A DNA stretch of 64,000 bases from NCBI GenBank assembly GCA_964545165.1, contig CAZJEQ010000003.1, positions 52,990 to 116,989 of the forward strand, read 5' to 3'. Under the pieces are notes generated by a model. That model worked only from the letters and a program-made list of their open reading frames with translations. It was not told the origin of the DNA and made no database searches. Each line of letters begins with the position of its first letter. The first letter of the stretch is position 1. Of this stretch, positions 42,592 to 58,693 are shown one piece after another. The stretch comes from an uncultured Candidatus Saccharibacteria bacterium. Its GTDB lineage: Bacteria > Patescibacteriota > Minisyncoccia > Phycocordibacterales > UBA2100. The translations under genes and the position numbers were made by a program.

Positions 42592-42635
42592 CCCTGCAGA
42601 TATAAATACGCGGTCGCGTATTTATATCTGCAGGG
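42592..42635. repeat. Perfect 20-bp-stem palindrome ccctgcagatataaatacgc-ggtc-gcgtatttatatctgcaggg
   Basis: It lies between the stop of the TraD-like ATPase gene and the start of the PKD gene. No T-tract follows on either strand. CTGCAG occurs in both arms. Confidence 0.5.
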
Positions 42636-42687
42636 CAACACAGCAAAAGAACACAAGATCGATTTGAATACCAGGCAGCGCGGCCGC

Positions 42688-44607
42688 TTAATCGTTTTTC
42701 TGCAATATCTCTTTGAGCGTGCCGTGCGAGATTTCGCCATGGTGGCGATCGCGCTCAGGTGTTTCGGGGCGCGGTGGGCGGGGCTGCTCTTGACGCTCCT
42801 CGCGTGCCTGCTGCTGCGGTGGTGTATGCGGCTCAGATCGGGGCACAAAGGCATCACGCGCAGCCTGTTGCTCACGCGGTGCACGGTGCATCTGCTGCAC
42901 GGTCTGCGGTCGCGGCTGCTCGCGCTTCTGTTCCCGCTTCTCACGGAGCACATCGATAGGTGAGCGTGTCGGCATCGCGATAGGTGCAGCGGTGCTCTTT
43001 GCAATACCTTCTGCGCGCGCCTTCTCGATCGCGTCACGCAGCGAATTGCGCTCTACTTTCTCGCGCTCTGCACGTACTACGGGCGCCGGAGCGTGGGCCG
43101 TATCGCGTGGCGCAAATACGGCGCGCGATTGTGAGAGTGGTGGCGATTGGGTCACGGCGACCGCTCGCGCAAGGACCGCACGCGGCTCGGTCCCCTCGTC
43201 GCGGGGCCGCGTGCCATAGGCACTCCCTTTTCGCTCCTTCTTTTCCTTTGGGGGCGCAATAAATTCCAGCTGCTTATTGTTGGTCACTGCTTCAACATCC
43301 ACACGGACACGCCCGTATTGCGCGCGTGAATTCGTAACCACATCGTCACGGTACGTAATCGCCGGCGCCTCGATGGGCGGAATGGTCTCGGCAGAAAACG
43401 GCGCCGTACCCACCCCGTCGATCATGAGCGTGAGGTAGATCTGCCCGATGCCGAGGCCGACCAAATCTTCTGGGAGGAAGGTGGGCTTAAAGACCGTCTC
43501 GAGTACTTCGGCGTCAAACGGGCCCACGCGGAACACGATGAGTGTGCCGACGTTGCCGAACACGGCATCGCGCACCTCCTCTTCCATCTGTTCGATGTAC
43601 TGGTTGGCGAGTGTGAGTGCGAGTTTGTATTTGCGTGATTCTGAGAGAATGTCGGCGAAGGCCTCGTTCATCATCGACTGGAATTCGTCGACATAGAAAT
43701 AAAAGCGCGGCAGGCGCGCGAGGCGCGCTGCTGGCTCATCGGCGCGCGACATCGCAGCGAGATAGATCTTGACCGTGAGCATGGATCCCAAGAGTGCGGC
43801 GTTACTCTCACCCATGCGCCCCTTGGAGAGGTTGACGATAAAGATCTTTTTCTCGTCCATGATTTTGCGCAAATCAAACGAGGAGTGCGGCTGCCCGATA
43901 ATGTTGCGGATCAGCGGATTCGCGGTGAATTGACCAATCTTGTTTTGAATAGCCGGCGTCGCTTCGCGGGTATACGTATCGGTAAAATTCGCGAATTCGT
44001 CCGTCCAGAATGCTTTTACGATCGGGTCCGAGATCTTCTCAATCACGGCATTGCGAAAGGTCTTGTTGGTGAGCATGCGATTCACATCGAGGAGCGTTGA
44101 GTCCGGATACTCGAGCAGCGCGAGCAAGGTATTTTGCAGGATGTATTCCATACGTGCTGACCACGCGTCCACCCAGATACGCTTGAGCGCCCCCATGAGG
44201 CCAGAGACGACGAGGTGGCGCTTGTCGAAGCCGACATCTTCCATGACGTTGAAGCCGAGCGGGAAATCCGTATCAAACGGCGCAAAGTACACGACGTCTT
44301 TCACGCGGTGCTCAGGGATGAAATCGAGCAGCTTCTCAGCGGTCGAGCCGTGCGGATCGATAAAGGCTATGCCCTCGCCATTTTGGATATCTTGAATCGC
44401 CATGTTCTCGAGCATGGTCGATTTACCCATACCGGTTTTACCGATGACATAGACGTGCTTACCGCGATCTACTGCACGAATACCAAACATCTCGCGCTTT
44501 CCGCGCGTATGGGTCGTCGCAAAGTAGGTAATGCGACGCTCATCGTCGTGCTGATCCGGATGTACTTTCGGACCTGTATCGGGTGCATCATGATGGTCCC
44601 CAGACAT
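42688..44607 (-). CDS. Soluble FtsK/HerA-superfamily P-loop ATPase of the TraD/TraG/VirD4 (TrwB_AAD_bind) type, copy 1
   Basis: Walker A VIGKTGMGKST. Walker B YFYVDEFQ followed by ...LALTLANQ. No N-terminal TM helices. A long Arg/Glu/Gln/Pro-rich disordered C-terminal tail. Confidence 0.65.
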   Translation of the reverse strand: MSGDHHDAPDTGPKVHPDQHDDERRITYFATTHTRGKREMFGIRAVDRGKHVYVIGKTGMGKSTMLENMAIQDIQNGEGIAFIDPHGSTAEKLLDFIPEHRVKDVVYFAPFDTDFPLGFNVMEDVGFDKRHLVVSGLMGALKRIWVDAWSARMEYILQNTLLALLEYPDSTLLDVNRMLTNKTFRNAVIEKISDPIVKAFWTDEFANFTDTYTREATPAIQNKIGQFTANPLIRNIIGQPHSSFDLRKIMDEKKIFIVNLSKGRMGESNAALLGSMLTVKIYLAAMSRADEPAARLARLPRFYFYVDEFQSMMNEAFADILSESRKYKLALTLANQYIEQMEEEVRDAVFGNVGTLIVFRVGPFDAEVLETVFKPTFLPEDLVGLGIGQIYLTLMIDGVGTAPFSAETIPPIEAPAITYRDDVVTNSRAQYGRVRVDVEAVTNNKQLEFIAPPKEKKERKGSAYGTRPRDEGTEPRAVLARAVAVTQSPPLSQSRAVFAPRDTAHAPAPVVRAEREKVERNSLRDAIEKARAEGIAKSTAAPIAMPTRSPIDVLREKREQKREQPRPQTVQQMHRAPREQQAARDAFVPRSEPHTPPQQQAREERQEQPRPPRPETPERDRHHGEISHGTLKEILQKND

Positions 44608-44621
44608 GCGAGAAGTATAAC

Positions 44622-44733
44622 CTTGAAATTCTCAGCTGAGAATTTCAAGAGTTACACCCGGTCACACCTCTGCAGAGGTGTGACGTTGGGTGTCACCTTG
44701 GTCTTATCAGAGAATTTCAAGAGTTACACCCGG
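44622..44733. repeat. REP-like composite element
   Basis: Hairpin A cttgaaattctc-agct-gagaatttcaag at 44622-44649. Hairpin B gtcacacctctgcagaggtgtgac at 44661-44684. A partial second copy gagaatttcaagagttacacccgg at 44710-44733. Confidence 0.5.
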
Positions 44734-44765
44734 GCACGTCAAGTGGGAATGCGAACAAGCAACAA

Positions 44766-46334
44766 TTATTCCGTTGGCAGCGATGCTGCGGGCGCGTATT
44801 GATTGCGTACAAAGGTGATCAGTTTGGCGACATCCCCCGATGAATCTCGCGAACCGAGCACCACGACCGCCAGCAAGCGATTTTGTGCACCGATTTTCAC
44901 GTCGTACACGCCGGCGTAGGTCTCCCCTGCGTCGTTGGTCTGTCCGATTTTGCCGCCGACAAAGGTACCGGGAACATTTTTGAGCACATTGAAATTCGCG
45001 ATTGATCCAAACACAGGAGTCCCATACGCAGAATCTTTGAGATCGCCCGAGGTTATCGAAAAGACGAAGCGCCGATTCTCGTGAATATATTTGAGGAGCG
45101 TAAAGAGATCTTCCGGTGTCGAGAGATCATTCTTGGCTCCCGAGGGATCGCTAAAGAGCGTGTGCGTGAGTCCGATCGCACGCGCCTTGTCGTTCATCAG
45201 CGACACGAAGCGCTCCCTGCCGATTGAACGCGCCAGTGTCTCAGCTGCCTCATTAGAGCTCTCTTGCAAGAGGAGGAACAATAAATCGTACGCACGGTAG
45301 TGCATCCCCGCTTTTAAGCGCGGGACAGAAGTATACACAATCGCCTCGCGGGGCACGGTCACTTCTTTATCAAGATTAATGTACTCCGTCGCGACCAGCG
45401 CAGTCACGAGCTTGGTAATCGAGGCAATCGGTGCGGTAGACGAGGCGGCGCTGTTCATCAAGACGGTGTGATTGGTGAGATCGGCGACGATATACCCACT
45501 CGCACTCACTGCCGGCCCCTTGAGCTGGTACGCGAAGGGGTCACGCGTCGGTGCCTCGTTGTACACCACGACCGGCATACCGACCGTGGCGAGCGCGTAG
45601 ACTTTTTTCGCATCCTCAGTCGAGAGGCGGATGCAGCCGCCGGAGTATGTCGACGAGACTGCTGTGCCATCGGCATAGTACGGCCAGCCGTGAATGAAAA
45701 AATTCCCTTGAAAATCCATGCTGTACGGCATGTACACATCGCCAAACGACGAAAGATGATTTTCTTCCTTGGTCTGAATCTTATAGATGCCCGCCGGCGT
45801 CTCCCACCACGAGCCCACCTTACCCTTGGCACCAATCGGTACTTCGAGTGCCGGTGCGCCATCGATATATACGGTGAGCCGCATTGCAGAGAGATTCGCA
45901 TCGACAAACGACGCCTTGGCACTGACGAGCGATTCGATGGTCTCACCGTAGTACCCCGGATCAGAGAGTGCCGGCAACGCACCGTATTCGAGCGGGAGTG
46001 TCGTTGACGCGGTCTGCGGCACTGATATCGAATACACCGCCCGAGGATTTGCATACAGATACGAGGCGGCGGCCGTCGCGAGACAAGCACAAGCAATCGC
46101 GGCGTAGGTCAAAAGCGCGCGATTGCTTCGCGGCGCCTTGTCTGACGCCGGTGGCTTAGGGGGCACCACCACGGCCGGCGCGGGTGCTGCGACGGGTGGC
46201 AGCGGTGTCGTGGCCTCTCGCAGCTCATCAGCTGTCCACCCTTCAAGCGCCAGGCGCTCCGAGATCACGCCGTCCGCCATGCCAAGTGCGCGATACTGCG
46301 CGATGCGCACAGCGAGATCTTCGACGCGTGTCAT
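44766..46334 (-). CDS. Bifunctional-looking cell-wall enzyme: N-terminal L,D-transpeptidase (YkuD) + C-terminal D-Ala-D-Ala carboxypeptidase (S11/PBP5-like), N-terminal TM anchor
   Basis: YkuD catalytic motif HGWPYY...SGGCIRL. SxxK (SITKLV) and SxN (SSN) motifs with a KTG-like GGKIGQT. Confidence 0.65.
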   Translation of the reverse strand: MTRVEDLAVRIAQYRALGMADGVISERLALEGWTADELREATTPLPPVAAPAPAVVVPPKPPASDKAPRSNRALLTYAAIACACLATAAASYLYANPRAVYSISVPQTASTTLPLEYGALPALSDPGYYGETIESLVSAKASFVDANLSAMRLTVYIDGAPALEVPIGAKGKVGSWWETPAGIYKIQTKEENHLSSFGDVYMPYSMDFQGNFFIHGWPYYADGTAVSSTYSGGCIRLSTEDAKKVYALATVGMPVVVYNEAPTRDPFAYQLKGPAVSASGYIVADLTNHTVLMNSAASSTAPIASITKLVTALVATEYINLDKEVTVPREAIVYTSVPRLKAGMHYRAYDLLFLLLQESSNEAAETLARSIGRERFVSLMNDKARAIGLTHTLFSDPSGAKNDLSTPEDLFTLLKYIHENRRFVFSITSGDLKDSAYGTPVFGSIANFNVLKNVPGTFVGGKIGQTNDAGETYAGVYDVKIGAQNRLLAVVVLGSRDSSGDVAKLITFVRNQYAPAASLPTE

Positions 46335-46426
46335 GCCCCGATTTTATCATCCATCTCGAGGAATCTGGATAAAATCGATGAGGTGCAGCGTTCATGAACG
46401 CCTGAGTGGAGTGGTACCTGTAATGT

Positions 46427-47560
46427 CTATTGGTACTGAATGTAGAGGGGCTGTGGCGATAGCTTCAACAGTTCACTCGGCTGGAACATACCGGTCGACG
46501 GAGCGAAGAGATCGTTCTTATAGAAGAGCTTAAACCCGGTGAACTGCACAGGCTCTGGCACGATGACACGGGTATAAGTGCCGATCTTTTTGGCTTTGTC
46601 GCCCCAGCCGTCCATGTCCATCACAATCTGTACTTCCGGGAGCGGCTTAATGAGTCTGGTGTTGGTCACCATGTCCTGTGTAAAGCGGTGCACGATGAGA
46701 ATTTTTGGCGGGAGGTTATTCTCGCGCACCAATCGCGCCAGATATTCTGCAGCAAAATTAATATCCGCCGCATCAAACGAGCCAATCACACGCCCTGGCG
46801 GCGCTCCTGTTTTCATCGAGAACTCCGGATCCACACCAAGATGGACCTTCGGATTCTTGAGGTACTCCTCGTAGTGCGGCAATTCTTTCTGCAGTGTCGA
46901 GAGTCCCACCTGGAAATCGATAAACACGATGCCGTCGATCTTCTCTGCAATCGCGAGTGCTTTATCGATCTGGTCATCCGGCATGCGCAGCGTATACATG
47001 CCGTCTTTTTGCGGGAGGCTCTGCGCGGTTGTCACGATGTAATGAATAGCGGGGATGACCGGTGTCTTGGGATCCGCCGCTTCCCACTTCGCAACTTCCG
47101 CGCGCAATTTCTCGAGCATGACCGGCTCATCGTATTCGCCGAGCACGCCCATGCCACGCGAATAGAAATTGCCGTAGTACGCGACGATGCGATTAAACGG
47201 TAGGAGCGCACCTACGTTCGGATATGGTGCATTTTTGACCGGCCATTTGATCGCCGCTTTTTGCGCAGCAGAAGCGGTGGTCGATGCGAGGAGCGCGAGC
47301 GTCGTCGAGCTGAGATTGGCATTGGCGAGCAGCTTGGCGTCGTAGGCTTCACGATCAAGCTCAGGCGCACGCGGCTTGAGCGGTGTCGTAAATTGCCCCG
47401 TCGACGATGCACTGGCTCCCGTGCGATCAAAATTGACCGCATTGCCAAACATCAACGGTCCGAAAAAAACATAGATGAGAGATATCGCGAGCAGCGCCAC
47501 GCCGACATAGATGCCGAAGCGTGCTCCGCGATGCATCTCACGCTTTGATGCACGTGCCAT
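46427..47560 (-). CDS. Membrane-anchored hypothetical protein (possible glycoside-hydrolase-like TIM-barrel, DUF4015-like)
   Basis: N-terminal TM. Recognised from memory only. Start set at internal M29. Confidence 0.35.
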   Translation of the reverse strand: MARASKREMHRGARFGIYVGVALLAISLIYVFFGPLMFGNAVNFDRTGASASSTGQFTTPLKPRAPELDREAYDAKLLANANLSSTTLALLASTTASAAQKAAIKWPVKNAPYPNVGALLPFNRIVAYYGNFYSRGMGVLGEYDEPVMLEKLRAEVAKWEAADPKTPVIPAIHYIVTTAQSLPQKDGMYTLRMPDDQIDKALAIAEKIDGIVFIDFQVGLSTLQKELPHYEEYLKNPKVHLGVDPEFSMKTGAPPGRVIGSFDAADINFAAEYLARLVRENNLPPKILIVHRFTQDMVTNTRLIKPLPEVQIVMDMDGWGDKAKKIGTYTRVIVPEPVQFTGFKLFYKNDLFAPSTGMFQPSELLKLSPQPLYIQYQ

Positions 47561-47561
47561 G

Positions 47562-47759
47562 CTATTCGAGCGTGGTGTCTTCTTTGTGTGAGTGAGGTGC
47601 GCGCAAAATGCCAGCGCGACGACGTACCGCAATACCGAGGCCAATGACGATCACGCCGAGGATAAAGAAAATAACCGTGTCCCAACTGCTGGGGAAGCCG
47701 AGAAACGGAAGCAGTGCGACCAAGGCGCCTGCGAGCATGATGAGCGTATCGAGTGTCAT
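47562..47759 (-). CDS. Small 2-TM membrane protein (65 aa)
   Basis: Strongly hydrophobic. Its stop abuts the start of the downstream gene. Confidence 0.4.
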   Translation of the reverse strand: MTLDTLIMLAGALVALLPFLGFPSSWDTVIFFILGVIVIGLGIAVRRRAGILRAPHSHKEDTTLE

Positions 47760-47772
47760 GCCCGCAGTATAA

Positions 47773-47843
47773 CCTGAAGATTCTCACCAGAGAATCTTCA
47801 GGGTTATGCCCGGTCACGTCCCTGCAGGGACGTGACCGGGCAT
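47773..47843. repeat. REP-like composite element, second locus
   Basis: Hairpin A cctgaagattctc-acca-gagaatcttcagg at 47773-47802. Hairpin B atgcccggtcacgtccctgcagggacgtgaccgggcat at 47806-47843. Same architecture as at 44622-44684. Confidence 0.5.
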
Positions 47844-47849
47844 AGCAAA

Positions 47850-48542
47850 CTACTTTTCGACTATCACGACAAATTCGCCGCGCACGGCGCCGCGCTTCTT
47901 GAGCGATTTGGCGATTTCGAGTGGCTCGCCCGATACAAATTCTTCATGGAGCTTGGTGATTTCGCGCGCGATTGCAACTTTCTCGATACCGGCTTTGGCG
48001 AGCTCCTGCAGTAATTTCTCGATGCGGTGAGGGGATTCGAAGAGGACGACCGTGTATTCACTCGCGGCAATCTTCTTGATCGCGGTCTGTCTCCCCTTTT
48101 TGTGCGGCAAAAATCCGAGGAAGGTAAAGGCGTCACTTGCGAGTCCCGCGATCGAGAGTGCGGCGGTAACTGACGATGCTCCCGGCACCGCATCGATCAC
48201 GATCTCGGGCAGGTGCTCGCGCACATATGCGATGAGTCGCGCGCCCGGATCAGAGATACCCGGTGTGCCTGCGTCGGAGACGAGGACCACATGGTCACCC
48301 GCCTCGAGTCGCGCGCAGATTTCCTTCATTTTCTTGCTCTCGGTCGCCGCATCCATGCGCTGCACGGAGGTGCGGATACCGTAATGCGCGAGGAGCTTGG
48401 AGATGACACGCGTGTCTTCCGCATATATCACCGTCGCCTCCTTCAAATTCCAAAGGCCACGAAAGGTCATGTCACCCATGTTGCCGATGGGTGTGGCTAC
48501 GACGGAGAGTTTGCCCTGCGTTTCTTCTGAGTGCTCACTCAT
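47850..48542 (-). CDS. rsmI: 16S rRNA (cytidine1402-2'-O)-methyltransferase
   Basis: KLSVVATPIGNMGDMTFRGL...VSDAGTPGISDPG matches RsmI. Confidence 0.9.
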   Translation of the reverse strand: MSEHSEETQGKLSVVATPIGNMGDMTFRGLWNLKEATVIYAEDTRVISKLLAHYGIRTSVQRMDAATESKKMKEICARLEAGDHVVLVSDAGTPGISDPGARLIAYVREHLPEIVIDAVPGASSVTAALSIAGLASDAFTFLGFLPHKKGRQTAIKKIAASEYTVVLFESPHRIEKLLQELAKAGIEKVAIAREITKLHEEFVSGEPLEIAKSLKKRGAVRGEFVVIVEK

Positions 48543-48621
48543 GAGAAGACGCTACCATTAGACGATACGAATGTACATAGTCAAGGTTTTGTGGTACGGT
48601 CGTCGCGGCAAGGAGGAACCA

Positions 48622-49086
48622 ATGCCCACTCGTTACAACGACCACGACTGCTTGATGTTCGTCATGCAGGGAGACGCGACGCGCGTATTCAGCGTGTTCG
48701 ACCTGCCCGATAACAAGGGCGCGCTCGACGAATACGTCGGCACCAGGCTGACCTCGTACAATCTGTGCGACCACCAGGGGGACCTGAGCGACTACTGCGC
48801 CCTCATCACGTACGGCACCGCCAAATACTTCTTCTACGTGCGCGTGCAGGAGGAAGACAATCGGCGTATCGCCCGCATGTTCTTCGGCGAGACGCTCATG
48901 CCAGACATGGTAGAGAAGTTGCGAGCGTGGCGCGAAAACAGCGAAACCGAGGCCGCTCTCCGCAACAAGGATGTCGCAGGAGCGCACGCACTCGAATCGT
49001 TCAAGCGCGTATTGGAGCGCACCGGCATCATCATGGCCCACGGGTTGCCGGAGCATGCATACTTCCGTATCGCGCCCGCGCGCTAG
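48622..49086 (+). CDS. Hypothetical protein (154 aa)
   Basis: AAGGAGG sits 6 nt upstream of the ATG at 48622. Composition is rich in Tyr/Phe/Asp/Lys, unlike the antisense ORF. An intrinsic terminator follows. Confidence 0.5.
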   Translation: MPTRYNDHDCLMFVMQGDATRVFSVFDLPDNKGALDEYVGTRLTSYNLCDHQGDLSDYCALITYGTAKYFFYVRVQEEDNRRIARMFFGETLMPDMVEKLRAWRENSETEAALRNKDVAGAHALESFKRVLERTGIIMAHGLPEHAYFRIAPAR

Positions 49087-49107
49087 CGCGATGCGCCCCG
49101 ATCATGG

Positions 49108-49140
49108 ACGGCCCGTTTTCACGGGCCGTTTTGTTTTAAT
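49108..49140 (+). terminator. Rho-independent terminator (stem acggcccg/cgggccgt, TTTTGTTTTAAT)
   Basis: Seen directly. An A-tract on the other side could make it bidirectional for convergent murC. Confidence 0.65.
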
Positions 49141-50419: not shown

Positions 50420-50756
50420 GAAGCGAGCATACCATCTCGTGCAATACATTCGCTACTTCACGCAAACGCGATACACTGAAGCTGTGAAGAAAGCGCCAAC
50501 AAAAGCAAAATTCAATTTCGAGCAGCTGAAAACGACAGCGACACACCTCGACATTCGCGTGCGCATGAAGGCATTTACGGAATATTTCGATATGTTTGAG
50601 GAATTCCCCTCATATCTCTACGACAATAGCTCAGGCATCGATGAGACATTACTGAGCACGGTTGAGAAGCTCCGAGAAAATCCCGACACCAGTAAGCAAA
50701 TGAAAATCGGCATCGAGCTTCTGCTCAATCGCCTTCCTTCCGCGCAGATGCGCTAG
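50418..50756 (+). CDS. Hypothetical small protein (112 aa; an alternative start at 50565 gives 63 aa)
   Basis: It fills a 337-nt gap between murC and gnd and has a protein-like composition. No clear SD. Confidence 0.3.
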   Translation: MKRAYHLVQYIRYFTQTRYTEAVKKAPTKAKFNFEQLKTTATHLDIRVRMKAFTEYFDMFEEFPSYLYDNSSGIDETLLSTVEKLRENPDTSKQMKIGIELLLNRLPSAQMR

Positions 50757-51668
50757 TTACCTCACTTTGTGGCCGCCAAATTGGCCGCGCAGCGCTGAGA
50801 CGACTTTACCAACAAAGCTCGGATTGTTTTCTGAATCGATGCGAAATTGGTACGAATCTTCAATCACCGGCGCCGGTACGTTAAATTCTTTTGCTGTCTT
50901 GACCGTCCATTCGCCTTCTCCCGTGTGCCCGATGGTACTAGAAATATCCGCGAGATCCTGACCACTCTCCTTGATCGCCGATCCTGCCCATCCAACAAGT
51001 CGCGATTCGATGACGCTACCGTTGTTGTAGATCTCGGCAACATCCTCGAGATTGATCGCAAAAGGGGATGCTTTGAGCACGCCAAATCCTTCGGCAAGGG
51101 CCTGCATCATGCCGTATTCGATACCGTTATGAACCATCTTAACGAAATGCCCCGCGCCCGCGCCCGGGAAGAATTTGTATGCCGTGCCGTCTTTGGCCAG
51201 ATCCTGGAAAAGTGGCTCGAATGCTTTGAATGCACTCTCGTCACCACCGACCATGAGGCACGCGCCGTTGAGTGCGCCACCGGGGCCGCCGGAGAACCCG
51301 ACATCTATAAAGCGAATACCTTTTTCGGCGAGCTGCTTTCCATGCTCGATCGATTCTTTGTAAAACGAGTTGCCGCCGTCCATCACCACGTCGCCCGGCT
51401 GCAAAATACTCGCGAGCTGTCTGAGGACATCTTCAACCGGCTTGCCCGCAGGGACCATCAGCCACACGAGACGCGGGGTATCACTCCCTGCGATCTCCGC
51501 AATGCTCGTGATCTGCTTCATGCCGGTCTCCATGGCCAATGCAGCGGTGACCTCCGCATTCATATCCATGCCTGCTACCGACCACCCTTTCTGCGTAAGA
51601 CGGCGGACAATGTTGGCACCCATCTTGCCAAGGCCGAGTATATTGAGCTCTTTTTTCATGTCAGTCAC
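50757..51668 (-). CDS. gnd: 6-phosphogluconate dehydrogenase, short (~300 aa) form
   Basis: LNILGLGKMGANIVRRL NAD-binding N-terminus plus the 6PGD fold. Confidence 0.8.
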   Translation of the reverse strand: MTDMKKELNILGLGKMGANIVRRLTQKGWSVAGMDMNAEVTAALAMETGMKQITSIAEIAGSDTPRLVWLMVPAGKPVEDVLRQLASILQPGDVVMDGGNSFYKESIEHGKQLAEKGIRFIDVGFSGGPGGALNGACLMVGGDESAFKAFEPLFQDLAKDGTAYKFFPGAGAGHFVKMVHNGIEYGMMQALAEGFGVLKASPFAINLEDVAEIYNNGSVIESRLVGWAGSAIKESGQDLADISSTIGHTGEGEWTVKTAKEFNVPAPVIEDSYQFRIDSENNPSFVGKVVSALRGQFGGHKVR

Positions 51669-53103
51669 TGATATCTGATTGTTCTAAAATTTCTTTCGTA
51701 TCAGGAGTGTACACCATGAGCGGCACGACATTCTGTTGCCAGGCTGCAAGGATCGGATCAGTAAAGCGCCACATCGCACGCACCTCCGCGGTCGAGATAA
51801 AGAGCGTCTGGTCGCCGCGCACACCATCGAGCAGCAGCTTCGCGTACTCCTCGACATACGCAACCTTCGCCTGCGGCTCGCGGAGCAGATAGTGAAATTC
51901 ACGACGCTCCGTCGCAAACGAGAAGCCCGGCGTCTTGGACCAGAATTCGATGAGAATCTCTTCGCGCGGCTCCAATCTGATTACGACCTCGTTTTTATGA
52001 TGCGGCTCCTCTGGTGGGCAGAGGCACGGCTGCGGATGACGGAACACAATACGGATTTCCTTTTGCGCGCTGCCAAGACGTTTCCCACCCTCCATCGTAA
52101 TCGGGACGCCGCGCCAATTCGGATGATCGAGGTAGGTGCGTACCTTAAAGAATGTCTCCGTCTCAGAATCCGGCTTCACACCATCAATCGCACGGTATCC
52201 CTCATACTGGGCGCGCACGGTCGAGCGCTCGATTTCTTTCTCGGACAAAGAGGGGAGGCACGCCAGGATCTCCGCTCGGCGCTCCTGAATAGCCGCCGCG
52301 TCAAAGCTCTCTGGGTGGCGCATCGTAAGCAGCGCGAGGATCTGCAGGAAGTGATTTTGTCCGACATCACGAAATGCGCCGACGTCGTCATAAAAGGCGC
52401 CGCGCTTCTCCACACCGATTTCCTCCAGCATGCTGATTTTGATGGATTCGATGAGCTTCGAGCCCCACTGCATCTCGAAGAGATTGTTGGCAAAGCGGAA
52501 GGTGAGTATGTTTTGCAACATTTCCTTGGCGAGGTAATGATCGATGCGATAGATCTGGTCCTCAGAAAAATACTGCGCGAGCAAGAGATCCAGCTCACGC
52601 GCTGTATCGGTATCCACACCAAAGGGCTTTTCCACCATCACGCGCATCCAGCCGCCGCCCGGCCCACACGGCTCCGAGAGACGCGAAGAGGAGAGTTGCT
52701 TAAAGATCGTTTCGTAAAATTCGGGTGCAACCGAGAGATAGAAGAGCTTGTTCGAGCAGACACCCCATTCCTGATCGAGCGTATCAAAGGTCGACTTCAA
52801 CGCCGCGTAACTCTCAGACTCGTCGAAGTCACCGCGCTGGAAGCGGAAAATCTTGAGAAAAGAGGCGAGTTCGTGCTTGGTAAATTTCTTGTTGCGGTGC
52901 TCGCTAATAGTCGTGACGATAAAATCTGCAAAAGTCTCATCCGTCAGATCACGGCGCGAGAATCCCACCACATGGAACATGGAGGGGAGTTCGTCCTTCT
53001 CGTATAAATAGTAGAGCGCGGGAATGACCTTGCGACGCATCAAATCTCCCGTCGCTCCAAACGCCACCAGAATCGTCGGAATATTCTCATGTGGCGCGAC
53101 CAT
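51661..53103 (-). CDS. zwf: Glucose-6-phosphate 1-dehydrogenase
   Basis: ILVAFGATGDLMRRKVIPALY and RIDHYLAKEMLQN motifs. Start set at internal M66. TATAAT lies 8-13 nt upstream of that ATG. Confidence 0.9.
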   Translation of the reverse strand: MVAPHENIPTILVAFGATGDLMRRKVIPALYYLYEKDELPSMFHVVGFSRRDLTDETFADFIVTTISEHRNKKFTKHELASFLKIFRFQRGDFDESESYAALKSTFDTLDQEWGVCSNKLFYLSVAPEFYETIFKQLSSSRLSEPCGPGGGWMRVMVEKPFGVDTDTARELDLLLAQYFSEDQIYRIDHYLAKEMLQNILTFRFANNLFEMQWGSKLIESIKISMLEEIGVEKRGAFYDDVGAFRDVGQNHFLQILALLTMRHPESFDAAAIQERRAEILACLPSLSEKEIERSTVRAQYEGYRAIDGVKPDSETETFFKVRTYLDHPNWRGVPITMEGGKRLGSAQKEIRIVFRHPQPCLCPPEEPHHKNEVVIRLEPREEILIEFWSKTPGFSFATERREFHYLLREPQAKVAYVEEYAKLLLDGVRGDQTLFISTAEVRAMWRFTDPILAAWQQNVVPLMVYTPDTKEILEQSDISD

Positions 53104-53214
53104 AGCGCTCGCATTATACCCGCCGGATACTGATAAGTTTGACTTCCCCCCTACCCTGTTCTCCGTTGAGTTATCCACAGGTCCGAGATCACACCCGAGA
53201 GCCATAATGATGAC

Positions 53215-53400
53215 CGCGTTCGAACACTCGTAGGTGGAAAGTGAATCAGGGTGCAATTCCCTGGCTGTCGCGCAACCGTATAGTCGGAGCCTTTCCATTC
53301 CCCTCTTTCAAGGGCTACGTTCCGGCTCGCGCCAAGTCACCTTCCACAACTCCCCTTGTGGATCCTCATGACCCCGCGATCCGGGGTTTGTCGCGTATGT
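53215..53400 (+). ncRNA. Candidate cobalamin (AdoCbl) riboswitch
   Basis: The core 53234-53291, GGUGGAAAGUGAAUCAGGGUGCAAUUCCCUGGCUGUCGCGCAACCGUAUAGUCGGAGCC, aligns by eye to the recalled E. coli btuB segment AGGGAAUCCAGUGCGAAUCUGGAGCUGACGCGCAGCGGUAAGG and to the T. tengcongensis GGGUGAGAAUCCCGCGCAGCCCCCGCUACUGUGAGG. A 6-bp hairpin ACCCCG-CGAUC-CGGGGU plus UUGU follows at 53371-53390, just before the ATG. Not verified with a covariance model. Confidence 0.4.
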
Positions 53401-53401
53401 C

Positions 53402-55414
53402 ATGCAGGAAGTTGCAGAACAACCAATTGATTACGTATCCGAAAATAGTGTCGGCGATTTTGATTTTGAGCGCCCATTTGAAATTGCTAATGAAAACGAG
53501 ATGCAGCTGTCCGACGAGGAGGTCTCTCCCGAGCTACTCGCCGCGAACGACATCGATCCAGTGGGAGAAGCGATACGCCCGTATGTAGGTGAACAATCGG
53601 AGACGGTAACGAGAGCAGAAAATATAATGGAGATAAAAGATGGCGAACTAGTGGATAACAACAGCGGGCTATCTCTCACGCGAATGCTTGAAACATCTGG
53701 AAGCGATGCGGACAGGGCGCTGCACCAAGACATGATGCGGCAATGGCAAGAGGGCGGCAGCAATTTTTTTGTAAATCCGATATTGGAACCTGAATACTTT
53801 CCCGGCGGAGAGCGCTATTTCATTACAACGATGATCCTTGAAGCTGACGGCAAGAGTGTCAGTTATGAGACGCGCACTATTACTACTCTGTACAAGGACG
53901 AGGACGAGACGCCAGCGCGTGATAACGAATACGCGGAGTCCAGCTCTCAGCAATGGTCTGAACACACAGGGTCTCAGGAAATCGAGGCGAATTACCCGCA
54001 GAATGAACTCGCATATATGGAGCAGGCGGCAGCAGTTACGGTTGAAGAACCAGAGTCTGCCGATACCGAAGCAGCCATTACTACTACCGCACGAGAAAAC
54101 ACTCAATCTCAGCTTGAAGCAAACGTACCGACTACGATGGAGGTTCGTACAGAATCTGAAAAATCTATTGAATATTCGTACGCAGAAATTGCGCATCCAC
54201 GAGAAATACAGGCGCAGATATTAGGAGAATTCCTCGCCATGGAACAATTGCCTGCCATACCAGTAGAAGACGATTTTAATGAGCCAATTATCTTGAAGGC
54301 ACCTGAGCCAGCACAAGACATCCTGAACGAGGCACAGCGCGTTGAGCACTCAGAAACAAATCGGGCTCCTGTTGAAATCCCCACAAACAATGTTCCGAGA
54401 TTTGTAGAAACTCAAACCAGTGAAGTCATATTTGAACAAGCCGAAATTGTCCAAGAGCTCGCTGAGCAACCAGAAGTAACCGTACAGATTAAGACCGAGG
54501 TTCCTCGCACTAAACCTGCTGCTACCAGAGAAGTGCAGAGGATCGACGTACAGGACGCAGAGCTTCCGACATATGATTTTAAAGATGCGATTGATGAGAT
54601 CAGAGAAGTGACCTCAGTGGTTATAGAACAACAAGAGAAGCCCGTTGTGAAAGAGATTACGGAGCTTAAGCCAGAAGTAAAAACTGTCGAGCCACAAATT
54701 GTAGAAATCTTTAGAGGTCGCCGTGGTGCGCGACCAACGACTGAATCGGGATCATCAAGATCAAATCACGAGGAGCGGGCAGAGGAGCTGCGTACTGAGC
54801 CACAATCAATCGCCGAGCGAGCTGTCGAGCAGACACTTGAGCGATTCGCCGCTGAAATGATTCGCGCACGTCCCACGCAACAAGAAGATGCACACCGAGA
54901 GCCGTTCGTTGAGCTAAATGTACGTGCAGCTAATGAACATGATCTGGTCGTTGAAGCTGATGAGCAGGCACTGACCACACGTGAGCACGTACGAGTCGCA
55001 GAGAAAGTTGCGCCAATAATCCTTGAACAAAAGCCGACCATTTCATCAGAAACTCGTCTTCCCGATATTCCAGAAACACGTACTGATGAATCTCTACACA
55101 TCCCAGAGGAGCCTGCCGCTCAACCACATGTGACTGCTGAAGCCGCTCCTCAACGCACAGCGCATGAATCAGGCACTGTTGTTCCCTTCCCTGACCTCGC
55201 TCGCCCTGAGACAAGAGCAGCCTCTGGCATTGAACATATTCTTGAGCAGCTCCGCCTTCCCCGCTCCGCGAACACTCCTGAAGTGATCCGTGCTGCCAAC
55301 GAGAACCTCCGCACGAGCGCATCAAGTAATCTCGCTATGTCCGACGATGCCGACAATCAACCACGTACGCGCACCGTCAAATCTGGTCCGATCACGATGA
55401 GAATTGCCGCCTAA
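53402..55414 (+). CDS. 670-aa highly acidic (Glu/Gln/Asp/Thr/Ala-rich), low-complexity, probably disordered protein
   Basis: A long ORF on the plus strand. The Glu-rich composition is unlike the Arg/Ala/Pro-rich spurious ORFs in this window. No signal peptide, TM helix or recognisable domain. Confidence 0.5.
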   Translation: MQEVAEQPIDYVSENSVGDFDFERPFEIANENEMQLSDEEVSPELLAANDIDPVGEAIRPYVGEQSETVTRAENIMEIKDGELVDNNSGLSLTRMLETSGSDADRALHQDMMRQWQEGGSNFFVNPILEPEYFPGGERYFITTMILEADGKSVSYETRTITTLYKDEDETPARDNEYAESSSQQWSEHTGSQEIEANYPQNELAYMEQAAAVTVEEPESADTEAAITTTARENTQSQLEANVPTTMEVRTESEKSIEYSYAEIAHPREIQAQILGEFLAMEQLPAIPVEDDFNEPIILKAPEPAQDILNEAQRVEHSETNRAPVEIPTNNVPRFVETQTSEVIFEQAEIVQELAEQPEVTVQIKTEVPRTKPAATREVQRIDVQDAELPTYDFKDAIDEIREVTSVVIEQQEKPVVKEITELKPEVKTVEPQIVEIFRGRRGARPTTESGSSRSNHEERAEELRTEPQSIAERAVEQTLERFAAEMIRARPTQQEDAHREPFVELNVRAANEHDLVVEADEQALTTREHVRVAEKVAPIILEQKPTISSETRLPDIPETRTDESLHIPEEPAAQPHVTAEAAPQRTAHESGTVVPFPDLARPETRAASGIEHILEQLRLPRSANTPEVIRAANENLRTSASSNLAMSDDADNQPRTRTVKSGPITMRIAA

Positions 55415-55418
55415 ATAA

Positions 55419-57086
55419 ATGCGTATGTCCGACAAGAAAATCCCCTACTACAATCTCCGCCAAGAAGCCGAAGCAGGCAGACTTCCGATGCTTATCGGTC
55501 GCTTTGAAGAAATCGAGCGCCTGGATCGCATTGTGAATCGTCGCGTGAATAATAATGTCGCCATCGTGGCGCAGAGTGGCACGGGCAAGACAGCGCTCGT
55601 CTGGGGCTGGATGCGACACCTCACCTCACGAGAAGAATTCGCCGCACTCGAATTACTACAATTCGACACTGAGCACCTCTACGCGCTTGATGACGATCCG
55701 GCGCTCGAGGAGCGGTACATCGAAGCGCTCTTACACCTCCCGCAGTGCGTGCTCTTTATCGACGATTTCGGCCGTGAAGTCTCGCGCAACAGCGTGCTGA
55801 TGCAGCGGATCTTCCGCATCTACAAACGCATCCTCAAAGAAGCGCACATCCACATCGTACTCGCGATGACACCGCAAGAGCACGAGTGGTTTGAGCGCGA
55901 ATTCGCGGCATTCCTCCACCTCTTTGAGGTCGTTACGCTGAAGGAGCAGACTGCTCAAGAGCACGTACGCATCTTGAGCCGCACGATTCCCCAGCTCAAC
56001 AAAAAACATCGCATGATCGTGCCTGATTCGTCACTGCGCGAAGTCGTGGCATTCACCGAGCGCTTCCCGGCGCTCGGGCAGATGCCGAAAGCCGCGATCC
56101 GCATCCTCGATGAGAGTATTTCCTACAGTGCCTCCAAGCATCGCAAAGTATTGCGCCAAGACGCTATCGCGCATGTGATCGAAGCGAAAACGGGAGTGCC
56201 CAAATCCCGCCTCAATGCCGATGAGCTCGCTGATATCAAACATCTCGAGACCTCACTCAATGCCCGCGTGCGCGGCCAGGGCGATGCCATTGCACGGATT
56301 GCCAAGACGCTGCAGCGTGCAAAGCTCGGCCTCCGCAATCCCGATCGACCACTCGGCTCCTTCCTTCTCCTGGGTCCCTCCGGCGTCGGCAAGACCGAAA
56401 CCGCAAAGAGCGTCGCAGATCTTATCTTCGGCCGCTCCGAGAGCTTTGTGCGCTTCGATATGTCCGAATTCCAGCAAGACCATACGGTGCAACGACTCAT
56501 CGGCGCCCCCGCCGGATACGTGGGCTTCGAAGAAGGCGGTGCGCTCACCAATCAGCTGCGCAAAGAGCCGCACTCGCTGGTCCTCCTCGACGAAATCGAA
56601 AAAGCGCATCCCAAGGTCTTCGATATTTTCCTCCAGGTACTCGACGACGGCCGCCTTACCTCAGGACAGAACGAGACCGTCGATGCGCGCAACGCAATTG
56701 TGATGGCCACCTCAAATGCTGCGGTCCCAGAAATTCTTGACGTGTTTGCACATACTGACGGGCAGGTCGACGAAACGTTTATGCAAGAAAAAGTAATGCC
56801 GGCGCTCGCCAAGACCTTCCGTCTGGAATTTATTAATCGTTTCGATGCGATCCTCGTTTTCAAGCCACTCTCGGTATCAGGCCTCATCGAAATCGCGCAG
56901 CTGGAGATCAAGAAGATCGAGAAGCGTCTCGAGCGACACGGCGTGCAATTCGATTTTGTGCCCGCAGAGATAGAAGCAAAAATCGCGACACTTGCTGATC
57001 CACGTTTTGGTGCTCGTCCAGTGAAACGCTACATCGAAGAGACCTGCGAGACATTACTCGCCGACACCTTACTCGCCTCACGATAA
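55419..57086 (+). CDS. Compact ClpA/ClpB/ClpC-family AAA+ ATPase (two AAA modules, no N-domain or M-domain; D1 Walker B degenerate)
   Basis: D1: IGRFEEIERLDRIVNRRVNNNVAIVAQSGTGKTALV, with Walker B VLFIDDFG (DD in place of DE). D2: LLLGPSGVGKTETAKSVA...LVLLDEIEKAH...DGRLTSGQNETVDARNAIVMATSNA. Confidence 0.8.
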   Translation: MRMSDKKIPYYNLRQEAEAGRLPMLIGRFEEIERLDRIVNRRVNNNVAIVAQSGTGKTALVWGWMRHLTSREEFAALELLQFDTEHLYALDDDPALEERYIEALLHLPQCVLFIDDFGREVSRNSVLMQRIFRIYKRILKEAHIHIVLAMTPQEHEWFEREFAAFLHLFEVVTLKEQTAQEHVRILSRTIPQLNKKHRMIVPDSSLREVVAFTERFPALGQMPKAAIRILDESISYSASKHRKVLRQDAIAHVIEAKTGVPKSRLNADELADIKHLETSLNARVRGQGDAIARIAKTLQRAKLGLRNPDRPLGSFLLLGPSGVGKTETAKSVADLIFGRSESFVRFDMSEFQQDHTVQRLIGAPAGYVGFEEGGALTNQLRKEPHSLVLLDEIEKAHPKVFDIFLQVLDDGRLTSGQNETVDARNAIVMATSNAAVPEILDVFAHTDGQVDETFMQEKVMPALAKTFRLEFINRFDAILVFKPLSVSGLIEIAQLEIKKIEKRLERHGVQFDFVPAEIEAKIATLADPRFGARPVKRYIEETCETLLADTLLASR

Positions 57087-57090
57087 ACCT

Positions 57091-57408
57091 ATGCACACAC
57101 GCGAAACACTTCCATCCCGCGAGCATTTCACCAACACTGCGGCGCCAGCGACGCAGGAAAAGGCACGTGTCTCACTCGCGCATGCCGACGAGATCCATGC
57201 GAGCCGCCGCACCATGCTCGAGGGTCTTGCCTCGAAAATCGGCTCACGCCTCTTCGAGGCCCTCTCGCGCAAAGTCGACCACGAACGCAGCGCCCTCGTC
57301 GAGATGATCGAGCGCGATGCGAAAGCCGCTGAGACCAAGCGCCGACTCGATAAGGTGCTCAAAACTGAATACTTTACGTACCGAAAACTTGATACCAATT
57401 TACTGTAA
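57091..57408 (+). CDS. Small alpha-helical hypothetical protein (105 aa)
   Basis: It starts 4 nt after the clp-like stop and ends 4 nt before the next start. Confidence 0.5.
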   Translation: MHTRETLPSREHFTNTAAPATQEKARVSLAHADEIHASRRTMLEGLASKIGSRLFEALSRKVDHERSALVEMIERDAKAAETKRRLDKVLKTEYFTYRKLDTNLL

Positions 57409-57412
57409 TCCT

Positions 57413-58693
57413 ATGCATACGGTCTCTATTGGCGAAAATGTGTACCACGGCAAGCGACGCCTGATTGAATACGCGGCAGATGATCGTCTGCGCCATATGT
57501 ACATGATTGGCAAAACGGGCGTCGGCAAATCGACGATTTTCCAAAATATGTGTCTGCAGGATATCGAGCGCGGCAGTGGTACCTGCTTTATTGATCCCCA
57601 TGGAGAATCGATTGAATGGCTCCTCGCGCGCATCCCCGCGGATCGCCTCCAAGACGTCGTCCTCTTCGACCCAAGTGACACCGACTACCCCTTTGGGCTC
57701 AACCTCCTCGAGGCGCGCGACGAATTCGAGAAGGATTTCCTCGTGAATGAATGCATCCAGATTTTCTACAAACTCTTCGATCCTAAGAAGAGCGGCATTA
57801 TCGGTCCCCAATTCGAGCACTGGCTGCGCAATGCCGCACTCACCGTGATGGCCGGGCCTGACGGCGGATCAATTCTCGAAATCCCGCGCCTCTTTGTCGA
57901 CAAAGAATTTGAGCGCACGAAACGCGCGCACCTCACGGATCCGCTCGTCCTCGATTTCTGGACCAAGCAGATGGCAAAAACGTCGGATTTCCACAAGAGC
58001 GAAATGCTCAACTACTTCATGTCGAAATTCGGCCCCTTCATCAACAACGCCATGATGCGCAATATCATGGGCCAGCATGTGAGCAGCTTCGACTTTAGTG
58101 CACTGATGAATGGGCGCGCCATCGTGCTCGCCAATCTCTCCAAAGGCAAGATCGGCGAAATGAATGCGCACATGCTCGGCCTCATCCTGATCTCGCGCTT
58201 GCAGGCGGCGGTGCTAGGGCGCGCCAAAGACCCGCCACAGAGCCGCACCCCCTTCTATCTGTACGTCGACGAGTTTCAAAACTTCTCGACCGACACGTTT
58301 ATCTCGCTCCTCTCTGAGTCACGTAAATACGGCCTCGGCATCCATCTGACCAATCAATACCTCTCACAGCTGCCGGAGAGCATCCGCGATTCGGTACTCG
58401 GCAACGTCGGCACGATGGTCTCATTCGAAGTCGGTGCTGAAGATGCACGTCTCTTGAGTGATGAATTCGCACCGATGTCAGAAGCAGATTTCATGGGACT
58501 CCCGCGCTTTAATTTCTTCGTAAAACTTATGATGGGTGGGAAAACCAGCGAAGTCTTCTCGGGCGTCGGGCTGCCGCCACAAGACATCGCCGCGACGAGC
58601 GCCTCGCGTGAGAGCGTGGTCGCATTGAATCGCCTCGCCTATGGCTGGCCGCGCACGCTCGTCGAAGAGACCGTGCATCACCAGCTTCGCTAA
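57413..58693 (+). CDS. Soluble TraD/TraG/VirD4-type (FtsK/HerA superfamily) ATPase, copy 2
   Basis: Walker A MIGKTGVGKST. Walker B FYLYVDEFQ followed by ...GIHLTNQ. Collinear paralogue of the 42688..44607 product. Start set at internal M33 of the tracked ORF. No TM. Confidence 0.65.
   Translation: MHTVSIGENVYHGKRRLIEYAADDRLRHMYMIGKTGVGKSTIFQNMCLQDIERGSGTCFIDPHGESIEWLLARIPADRLQDVVLFDPSDTDYPFGLNLLEARDEFEKDFLVNECIQIFYKLFDPKKSGIIGPQFEHWLRNAALTVMAGPDGGSILEIPRLFVDKEFERTKRAHLTDPLVLDFWTKQMAKTSDFHKSEMLNYFMSKFGPFINNAMMRNIMGQHVSSFDFSALMNGRAIVLANLSKGKIGEMNAHMLGLILISRLQAAVLGRAKDPPQSRTPFYLYVDEFQNFSTDTFISLLSESRKYGLGIHLTNQYLSQLPESIRDSVLGNVGTMVSFEVGAEDARLLSDEFAPMSEADFMGLPRFNFFVKLMMGGKTSEVFSGVGLPPQDIAATSASRESVVALNRLAYGWPRTLVEETVHHQLR

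Follow-up and report, generated by a model that had tools for sequence, protein, structure and literature searches.

Two ATPase genes that lie on opposite strands of the 64-kb stretch of DNA analysed here (the window, to the whole of which all window coordinates refer) are the subject of this analysis. The first, copy 1, sits in an envelope gene cluster directly upstream of a surface-protein gene, and the second, copy 2, closes a four-gene operon that also encodes a Clp-like unfoldase (Table 1). A reading made from the sequence alone had placed both open reading frames (ORFs) at these positions and had called their products collinear paralogues with the same Walker motifs, and both points were borne out: the proteins align over 416 collinear residues at 39% identity (BLASTP, E 7e-96) and share the Walker A motif GKTG(M/V)GKST, the Walker B motif YVDEFQ and the motifs SESRKY and NQY, with the two Walker motifs invariant across both lineages. 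The length of the copy 2 orthologues, ~426 amino acids (aa), confirmed the start of copy 2 as first read, at 57413 and not at 57317. That neither copy carries a transmembrane anchor, as had also been read, agrees with the maximal 19-residue Kyte-Doolittle means, which lie within the globular core and reach 1.47 in copy 1 and 1.34 in copy 2, with the position of Walker A, which starts at residue 56 in copy 1 and at residue 33 in copy 2 and therefore leaves no space for an N-terminal transmembrane domain, and with the AlphaFold2 (AF2) models of both copies, which are fully globular.

Table 1 Positions, strands and properties of the features of the window
Feature	Position	Strand	Properties
Copy 1	42688-44607	minus	639-aa ATPase ORF
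Copy 1 core, residues 24-447	43267-44538	minus	ATPase with type IV coupling protein (T4CP) fold
Copy 1 C-terminal tail, residues 448-639	42688-43266	minus	~190 aa; disordered, R/A/P/E/Q-rich, mostly pLDDT <50
Copy 1 terminus	42688-42720	minus	..LKEILQKND
Promoter-like hexamers	44614-44650	minus	TTCTCA-17-TATACT, just upstream of copy 1 start; weak evidence
Copy 1 partner	41174-42646	minus	Type-I surface protein: signal peptide, PKD domain, weak lamin-tail domain (LTD) ectodomain, C-terminal anchor module (Pfam)
Partner C-terminal anchor module	41177-41311	minus	..SYLWWLAAFALSLAACGAVYAIKHAKKGEWNIIDESR
YkuD+Peptidase_S11 fusion	44766-46334	minus	Cell-wall enzyme; adjoins copy 1
Copy 2 operon	53402-58693	plus	Gene A, Clp-like gene, 105-aa gene, copy 2
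Gene A	53402-55414	plus	First operon gene; 670-aa acidic protein, net charge -75, mostly low-complexity
Gene A C-terminal tag	55385-55411	plus	GPITMRIAA; ssrA-like
Clp/Hsp100-like unfoldase	55419-57086	plus	555 aa, double AAA+; no N-domain, M-domain or ClpP-docking tripeptide
105-aa small protein	57091-57408	plus	4 nt after Clp-like stop, 4 nt before copy 2 start
Copy 2	57413-58693	plus	426-aa ATPase, no transmembrane segment, T4CP fold; nucleotide-binding domain and all-alpha domain ~104-233
CofE-like F420-0:gamma-glutamyl ligase gene	58690-59376	minus	Convergent with copy 2, 4-nt overlap
Glucose-6-phosphate dehydrogenase (G6PD) and 6-phosphogluconate-dehydrogenase-like genes	50757-53298	minus	Oxidative pentose-phosphate genes, divergent from copy 2 operon
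Pfam-less ORF, 405 aa	46427-47644	minus	N-terminal transmembrane segment
Pfam-less ORF, 173 aa	48535-49056	minus	
Pfam-less ORF, 641 aa	19328-21253	minus	
Pfam-less ORF, 420 aa	26257-27519	plus	
Surface-glycan cluster	12541-37636		Large; in a reduced genome
NeuB	14984-16075		Glycan cluster
PseB-like dehydratase	16059-17057		Glycan cluster
CDP-alcohol transferase	21272-22072		Glycan cluster
Iron-dependent alcohol dehydrogenase	22115-23227		Glycan cluster
Thiamine pyrophosphate-dependent decarboxylase	23235-24365		Glycan cluster
Phosphoenolpyruvate mutase-cytidylyltransferase fusion	24368-25777		Glycan cluster
O-antigen-ligase/TPR protein	6244-8532		Listed with glycan cluster

Both copies are members, without transmembrane segments, of the T4CP (TrwB/VirD4/TraD) fold family, so that their earlier description as TraD/VirD4-type ATPases held up by Pfam, AF2 and Foldseek alike. 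In the AF2 models (pLDDT 89.9 and pTM 0.90 for copy 2; core pLDDT 80-98 for copy 1), an all-alpha domain, with helices at residues 104-233 of copy 2 and 127-251 of copy 1, is inserted into a RecA-like nucleotide-binding domain. When the models were compared with the PDB using Foldseek, the best full-length TM-scores were those to TrwB (0.60-0.65 over ~415 columns; copy 2: 0.62-0.64), to Cagβ, the top structural match (up to 0.65; copy 2: 0.65), and to DotL (0.51-0.59; copy 2: 0.59), with the TrwB and Cagβ alignments spanning 410-430 columns; the C-terminal domain of VirB4 (0.55-0.66; copy 2: 0.55) and HerA (0.38-0.52; copy 2: 0.47-0.52) ranked lower. Pfam placed copy 1 in PF10412 (TrwB_AAD_bind; 33.4 bits against a cut-off of 20.5), PF02534 (T4SS-DNA_transf; 26.0 against 20.1) and PF12696 (TraG-D_C; 24.4 against 22), and copy 2 marginally in PF10412 (23.3 against 20.5) and just under the cut-off for PF12696 (21.6 against 22). 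The NCBIfam TraD/VirD4 equivalog models scored 10-20 times under their cut-offs, a single-sequence search of the PDB matched TrwB at E = 0.0025, and PDB profile searches with the alignments of both copies, whose profiles were too narrow, returned only E > 0.05.

Structure prediction thus separated the two copies from the HerA/VirB4 topologies, a check that the sequence-only reading had proposed: the N-terminus of each forms only a two-strand hairpin and no HAS barrel, the HerA TM-scores are low and DUF87 stays at 21-22 bits, under its cut-off of 23.2. A housekeeping FtsK/SpoIIIE identity with a gamma domain, held up by that reading as the counter-case, was rejected, as neither copy matched FtsK_SpoIIIE (PF01580), no FtsK chain was among the top 50 Foldseek matches of either copy and the AF2 models hold no gamma domain. 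A separate motif search for FtsK in ~2.4 Mb of related loci gave no match, which says little about whether these genomes encode it. Two defining features of T4CPs are absent from both copies, namely the N-terminal membrane anchor and linkage to type IV secretion system (T4SS) or relaxase genes.

Database searches returned >8000 relatives of each copy at 65-95% identity (lower bounds, the search being saturated), of which the identical proteins and the closest relatives belong to Candidatus Kaiserbacteria/Paceibacterota within the Patescibacteria (candidate phyla radiation); the organism is itself a Kaiserbacterium. A profile of both copies matched 26,963 clusters at 50% identity, 8,625 of them with E < 1e-30, and the family representatives fell into three architectures: a short form like copy 2, an ATPase with a C-terminal tail like copy 1, and a form in which a transmembrane segment and a ~350-aa domain (Pfam DUF8128) precede the ATPase. 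By these comparisons the two copies are two ancient lineages, with thousands of orthologues each in Kaiserbacteria/Paceibacterota, and both are chromosomal, lie among housekeeping genes and do not adjoin T4SS genes. The core of copy 1 averages 87% identity over 43 species-level genomes in which MurC averages 64% and RsmI 67%, an unusually strong constraint for the T4CP fold; copy 2 shows 70% identity across related loci and its Clp-like neighbour 55%. A 2025 survey counted 5,713 VirD4-type homologues in 2,918 of 3,035 Patescibacterial genomes (96%), about two in each, and found only 148 of them near virB4, of which there were 2,474 genes; their function was given as unknown and exaptation was raised as a possibility (PMC12102498), in agreement with the earlier statement that such proteins have no established role. 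Two copies per genome are therefore already implicit in the literature (PMC12102498), in which we found no description of the two modules, of the -AA-tailed protein, of the WDI(I/V)EE anchor or of the DUF8128 fission set out below.

Two observations on the wider family stand beside these. Many GTDB-representative contigs with the Kaiserbacteria-type copy 1 (62-85% identity) bear the label 'uncultured Candidatus Saccharibacteria bacterium' in their TPA_asm records, labels that are probably generic or incorrect. One family member, P0242 (1210 aa, on an ENA contig of 67.8 kb), has two tandem T4CP-like ATPase modules behind a ~370-aa N-terminal domain, an arrangement that recalls the multi-ATPase EccC.

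Copy 2 had been described as sitting behind a Clp-like ATPase. A Clp-like gene does lie upstream, but the description understates a co-directional operon of four genes (gene A, the Clp-like gene, a 105-aa gene that had been missed and copy 2), with a G6PD gene diverging from one end and a CofE-like gene converging on the other. Among 80 metagenomic loci with copy 2 orthologues at 59-84% identity, the Clp-like gene was found upstream of copy 2 in 69, the small gene in at least 56 and the acidic gene in 53, and the gaps between operon genes were mostly 4-25 nucleotides (nt), with 86-280 nt between gene A and the Clp-like gene at some loci. The CofE-like gene occupies the same position in nine related loci and is a surprising gene for a cell from which F420 synthesis is not expected; the G6PD and 6-phosphogluconate-dehydrogenase-like genes are syntenic in only 2-3 of the 80.

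Gene A encodes a protein without a signal peptide and without a Pfam, NCBIfam or PADLOC match, in which two parts stand out: an N-terminal stretch of modest conservation (~78-165) and a C-terminal peptide, ..GPITMRIAA-COOH, that is conserved. The orthologues encoded directly upstream of the Clp-like gene in 53 loci are likewise acidic (490-1020 aa, 15-27% D+E, net charge -15 to -201) and diverge in sequence beyond tblastn detection. Their C-terminal consensus is (N/D)G(I/V)(T/S)(L/M)(K/R)xAA, with ..E(F/L)ELAA in a second subclade, and 26 of 42 unique gene A sequences end in AA, compared with 5 of 587 (0.85%) background ORFs from the same loci (Fisher p = 3e-30, an upper bound on the significance, the orthologues being related). 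The ssrA tag (..ALAA), which ClpX and ClpA read, is characterised by a C-terminal ..LAA. The conserved -AA endings of gene A (with variants such as ..ELAA, ..KLAA and ..ALAA) resemble it and stand on the protein encoded directly upstream of a Clp-type unfoldase; they differ in being genome-encoded on one dedicated protein and not added by tmRNA, for which no gene was found for tag comparison in the sequences of the related loci.

The unfoldase next to gene A belongs, as far as its sequence tells, to the Hsp100/Clp superfamily and to no named class within it: it matches Pfam AAA_2 (1.4e-57) and ClpB_D2-small and the D2 domain of ClpB in the PDB (1e-100), with the ClpB, ClpA and ClpV models all far under their cut-offs. 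Across 60 orthologues, the first AAA+ domain (D1) keeps its Walker A motif and has in every case lost both the Walker B glutamate, replaced by D/N in FID(D/N)F, and the pore-loop tyrosine, while the second (D2) is canonical, with GPSGVGKTE, a GYVG pore loop and the Walker B motif LLDEIEKAH. The ClpP tripeptide was matched in only one of the 60, by chance; since the unfoldase has no ClpP loop, in contrast to the ssrA system of ClpX and ClpA, degradation is not the expected outcome for the gene A product. The 105-aa protein, whose orthologues form two clusters between the Clp-like gene and copy 2, had no family match in the libraries searched; its sequence pattern suggests a mostly helical fold, and an alignment of 52 sequences gave a central motif R..ML.S(I/L) and a C-terminal motif (V/I)L..(E/Y)YF..(K/R/Q).L.

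ClpB-type unfoldases without a ClpP loop are usually remodellers and not exporters. No membrane protein is encoded in the copy 2 operon, and gene A, as stated, has no signal peptide; together these points would suit a cytoplasmic proteostasis or regulatory device in which the Clp-like protein remodels an acidic scaffold and the ATPase assembles or disassembles complexes, with no export involved. We regard this explanation as quite improbable, because no coupling-protein fold is known outside membrane translocation machines and mobile-element relatives, and because a fission/fusion relationship ties copy 2 to the membrane module DUF8128.

That relationship emerged from fused DUF8128-ATPases of other Patescibacteria. 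Residues 402-821 of one of these, P0246, match residues 6-426 of copy 2 at 51% identity (482 bits), whereas the match to copy 1 reaches only 41% (314 bits). A stand-alone DUF8128 protein of 463 aa, encoded 6 kb downstream of copy 2 at two loci only (L098 and L099), matches residues 103-396 of P0246 up to its own last residues and has hydrophobic N-terminal segments that are apparently membrane-spanning. It has >1000 homologues, the best 120 of which are all 413-493 aa long, 66-93% identical and from Kaiserbacteria/Paceibacterota. On these alignments, copy 2 is the ATPase half of a split DUF8128-ATPase gene, in a clean fission/fusion relationship from which it would follow that copy 2 works with DUF8128, which plausibly supplies its membrane anchor in trans. 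The earlier term 'soluble' stands in so far as there is no transmembrane segment, but is probably an incomplete description of copy 2 as half of a split membrane protein. No split DUF8128 gene was found beside copy 1 in related loci.

The fused forms make up a third lineage (P0246, P0253, P0266 and P0272; L168 4132-14947; L164 1672-4843), in which the N-terminal transmembrane segment, DUF8128 and T4CP-like ATPase are sometimes followed by a Pro/Ala-rich tail of up to 1000 aa. A small gene of 137-149 aa lies upstream and gyrB-gyrA downstream, the trio being seen in L168. The fused forms (P0246, P0253 and probably SEML1_0142, described below) are like the split pair in that copy 2 can be aligned over its whole length to their ATPase half and the Kaiserbacteria-type stand-alone protein to their N-terminal half up to the junction, and in their housekeeping gene contexts. 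In Kaiserbacteria-type genomes, however, the two halves are separate genes at different loci, and the Clp-like operon accompanies only copy 2, where it was acquired or kept, and none of the sampled fused forms.

The neighbourhood of copy 1 was compared in 80 species-level genomes of 171 matched, and follows one order on one strand: MurC, (MurI / NUDIX), an RsmI-like gene, variable envelope enzymes, copy 1, the surface protein, an epimerase and glycosyltransferases. Copy 1 had been read as lying beside a PKD surface protein and a cell-wall-remodelling fusion enzyme; both are present and the partner of the PKD type is conserved, but the YkuD+S11 fusion occurs near copy 1 in only 13 of the 80 loci and was rejected as a functional partner in favour of an incidental neighbour. 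The 405-aa Pfam-less protein is likewise encoded upstream of copy 1 in 13 of 80.

What is kept in the partner gene is its C-terminal module and not its ectodomain. Counts over 55 sequences gave the anchor consensus (S/G)xxWW(L/F)(G/A)A, a transmembrane helix and then a cytoplasmic RRxxK(K/R)EW(D/N)I(I/V)EE; a same-strand downstream gene with this module was found by regular expression at 55 loci, and with variant motifs at 5 more, among ~64 loci with enough downstream sequence; no instance of it occurs in 0.88 Mb of sequence around copy 2 orthologues. About 41 of the 55 partners carry a signal peptide and an N-terminal LTD, the window partner combining a PKD domain with a weak LTD; its likely true start is the ATG at 42517 (MRRISLVLVALLL...).

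The disordered tail of copy 1, estimated beforehand at ~200 aa, was confirmed (Table 1). Orthologue alignment picked out four conserved islands within it, KQxEFxPPPKEKKE right after the core, RNSLRDAIEKARA, RSPxDVLREK and the C-terminal GEVSHxxLQxVL, and AF2 with DSSP predicted four helices (475-486, 512-536, 550-562 and 628-636), the last three of which coincide with the last three islands. AF2 showed no gamma, winged-helix or other folded domain in the tail, and copy 2 ends with its ATPase. The copy in the window lacks the terminal ..NGxxRDxDDL that follows the GEVSHxxLQxVL helix in most orthologues. Upstream of copy 1, the promoter-like hexamers lie within a near-perfect inverted repeat with a 13-bp stem (TCTTGAAATTCTCAGCTGAGAATTTCAAGG), which may serve as an operator or terminate the gene upstream; in a promoter and terminator scan of the region, promoter-like sites were no commoner than in shuffled sequence.

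The TrwB/TraD family binds and translocates DNA in conjugation, and copy 1, perhaps with a DUF8128-linked copy 2, might accordingly be a DNA motor that serves uptake (nucleotide scavenging or competence) or segregation in place of FtsK or ComFA. In other bacteria, LTD domains turn up together with ComEC-type and nuclease domains (Pfam description), the extreme conservation of copy 1 within a co-directional envelope cluster would fit such a role, its Pro/Gln/Arg-rich tail recalls the FtsK linker, and the DUF8128-fused relatives adjoin gyrB-gyrA (L168; SEML1_0145). We consider a DNA motor clearly unlikely, given that neither copy shows a gamma domain, an FtsK_SpoIIIE match or an FtsK chain among its top 50 structural matches, that the window holds no comEC, comF or pil genes, and that copy 2 lies beside a protein unfoldase and a polypeptide with a degron-like tail, which points to a protein substrate.

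The sequence-only reading had proposed to check for pilus or competence genes elsewhere in the genome. In the sequence covered, neither these (comEC, comF, pil) nor VirB4 or relaxase genes occur in the window, and none was recognised in the 10-kb flanks of ~150 loci, a weak test that relied on a family hidden Markov model and clustering without Pfam annotation. Each copy does lie in a different conserved gene set, so that the idea of two differently embedded modules stands, but the 'DNA-handling' half of it has no direct support. The recruitment of coupling-protein-fold ATPases into two conserved chromosomal modules without linkage to T4SS genes is real.

Plasmid T4CPs are usually far less conserved than the 87% seen in the core of copy 1. 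This contrast bears on a further explanation, in which both copies are ordinary coupling proteins, receptors for two substrate classes of a VirB4-type T4SS encoded elsewhere, and their neighbours are substrates or chaperones. The T4CP fold of both copies speaks for it, the conserved C-terminal peptide of gene A would suit a C-terminal T4SS signal, T4CP genes are often located at a distance from virB4 and T4SSs are common among Paceibacteria (PMC12102498), and the Saccharibacterial T4SS cluster has no recognisable coupling protein of its own (PMC10633639). Set against these are the missing membrane anchor of both copies, the excess of T4CP homologues over virB4 genes in the survey and the small share of them near virB4, the failure to recognise VirB4 or relaxase genes nearby (with the weakness of that test in the flanks), and the case of ML1, which needs its T4SS but can do without one of its T4CP-like genes. 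On balance, ordinary coupling proteins seem to us somewhat unlikely.

Soluble relatives from beyond the phylum, with 23-32% identity, are orphan genes. They occur on plasmids (439 records, of which 318 are non-mobilizable), in a defence/mobile island and in a few Bacillus phages. The island (L163, ENA k141_721146) encodes a 440-aa soluble family member at 6256-7578 among resolvase, SIR2_2, integrase, PD-(D/E)XK, RadC, ResIII helicase, AAA_15 and methyltransferase genes, so beyond the two core lineages the soluble form is carried by mobile elements as well. These relatives, with weak PADLOC matches to mad8 and HerA, would fit a view of the two copies as leftovers from mobile elements or as components of anti-phage defence cassettes (HerA- or mads8-like ATPases), outside the core machinery. 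We give that explanation next to no credence: the context is near-universal, syntenic and housekeeping, with 70-87% identity across species, and neither module has an integrase, transposase or nuclease partner. A phage or mobile-element origin was rejected on the strength of only 3 remote matches in 2.9 million viral contigs and plasmid matches under 33% identity, and a defence system because PADLOC gave only generic P-loop and AAA matches.

Transposon sequencing (Tn-seq) of Candidatus Southlakia epibionticum provides a point of reference in a Saccharibacterium. SEML1_0142, a 1019-aa protein encoded near gyrB, is essential, as is the 139-aa gene directly upstream, SEML1_0141, while another T4CP-like gene, SEML1_0293, and a Clp-like gene, SEML1_0700, are non-essential (PMC10633639 supplement). 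The P-loop region of SEML1_0142 spans residues 381-800, and the N-terminal extension of ~380 aa suggests that it is of the DUF8128-fused type.

The best overall explanation, which we put forward tentatively, is that the two coupling-fold motors belong to separate modules, with an unfoldase-fed hand-off in that of copy 2. Its descriptive part (fold, paralogy, lineage conservation, operon, gene pair, Clp motif states, -AA tail and fission) is held with high confidence; the hand-off mechanism, which draws on gene order, fusion and fission and the analogy of motifs, is doubtful but possible. According to this model, a ring of copy 2 would dock on the DUF8128 membrane protein, and the Clp-like ring, with a structural D1 and an active D2, would unfold its substrate without degrading it because it has no ClpP loop. 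The D2 ring would engage the ssrA-like -AA tail of gene A and thread the acidic protein, the 105-aa protein would serve as adaptor or regulator, as CagZ does for Cagβ, and the coupling-type ring would receive the unfolded chain and deliver it to the membrane or across it. Copy 1 would be a second ring motor, tethered to or acting through the cytoplasmic WDI(I/V)EE tail of the LTD/PKD surface protein, and the short helices of its own tail may recruit partners in the manner of the C-terminal tails of TraD and DotL.

Several observations weigh against this reading. No DUF8128 gene was found in the window, and the fused ATPases are closer to copy 2 only on average (27 of 41 representatives of the N type and 15 of 28 of the NC type). 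About one in three gene A orthologues do not end in -AA, and the kinship of the orthologues tempers the significance of the enrichment of this ending. None of 150 representatives fuses the ATPase to the Clp-like or the 105-aa protein, and the Saccharibacterial Clp-like gene SEML1_0700, which adjoins neither SEML1_0142 nor SEML1_0293, is not beside a T4CP-like gene, which means that the operon is not phylum-wide. Finally, the single-pass partner of copy 1 cannot itself form a pore. Taken further, the hand-off model would define a so far undescribed, VirB4-independent translocation apparatus of Kaiserbacteria/Paceibacteria, in which a minimal Hsp100 protein with a dead D1 and no ClpP loop threads the fast-evolving, -AA-tailed acidic protein into a DUF8128-docked ring, SEML1_0142 with SEML1_0141 is the same machine in fused form, essential in Saccharibacteria, and copy 1, tethered to its surface protein, is a second motor, a proposal that we consider unlikely.

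The rest of the window encodes SecA, GatB, a Mur ligase, pentose-phosphate genes and a large glycan/phosphonate/nonulosonate cluster, whose individual genes are listed in Table 1 and which also includes DegT aminotransferases and many glycosyltransferases. The gene content of this cluster suggests glycans decorated with phosphonate and nonulosonate.

Much of bacterial diversity belongs to the Patescibacteria, which depend on host cells, and little is known of how macromolecules are transported in them. The surveyed T4CP homologues can now be divided into separate lineages, for which conserved partners can be named: a candidate substrate tagged at its C-terminus, a dedicated unfoldase, a putative small adaptor, a DUF8128 membrane module tied to copy 2 by gene fission and a surface protein whose cytoplasmic tail is conserved. 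With partners named, experiments on binding, unfolding and localisation become possible for both ATPases, and the analysis ties in with the only available Tn-seq data set, in which the probable fused homologue is essential together with the small gene upstream of it. Were the hand-off model true, we would know of no earlier case in which an Hsp100 unfoldase is paired with a coupling-protein ring.

Compared with known systems, both copies share with TrwB, VirD4 and TraD the RecA-like domain with an inserted all-alpha domain, Walker A and B motifs and an RK-containing motif, and the long disordered tail of copy 1, which ends in a conserved peptide, has a counterpart in F TraD. Sequence identity to TrwB is only ~14-15%, however, and the two copies differ from these proteins in having no N-terminal transmembrane domain and in being chromosomal core genes with no relaxase or VirB4 nearby, with a copy 1 core that is strongly conserved. 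With FtsK/SpoIIIE and HerA/VirB4 they share the ASCE P-loop superfamily, and with FtsK the long low-complexity, linker-like region of copy 1; they differ from FtsK/SpoIIIE in the absence of a gamma domain, an FtsK_SpoIIIE match and transmembrane segments, and from HerA in the lower TM-scores and the absence of a HAS-barrel domain.

Closer parallels for the modules as a whole come from secretion machines. Cagβ-CagZ of H. pylori and DotL of Legionella are coupling ATPases controlled by small helical or adaptor proteins that are encoded with them, as proposed for copy 2 and the 105-aa protein, and the long C-terminal tail by which DotL holds its adaptors parallels that of copy 1; these T4CPs differ in being membrane-anchored and encoded in T4SS loci, and no similarity of the 105-aa protein to a known family was detected in libraries that need not include CagZ. 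In ClpV of the type VI secretion system, EccA/EccC of the type VII secretion system and HSP101 of Plasmodium PTEX, an Hsp100 or AAA+ ring is encoded or assembled with a translocation machine, as proposed for the copy 2 operon, although the Clp-like protein of the window has no N- and M-domains and a catalytically dead D1, and its partner is a T4CP-fold ring, a pairing not found in the literature. The nearest analogy to the Clp-like protein with copy 2 is EccA with EccC, an AAA+ ATPase that accompanies an ATPase of the FtsK/HerA superfamily.

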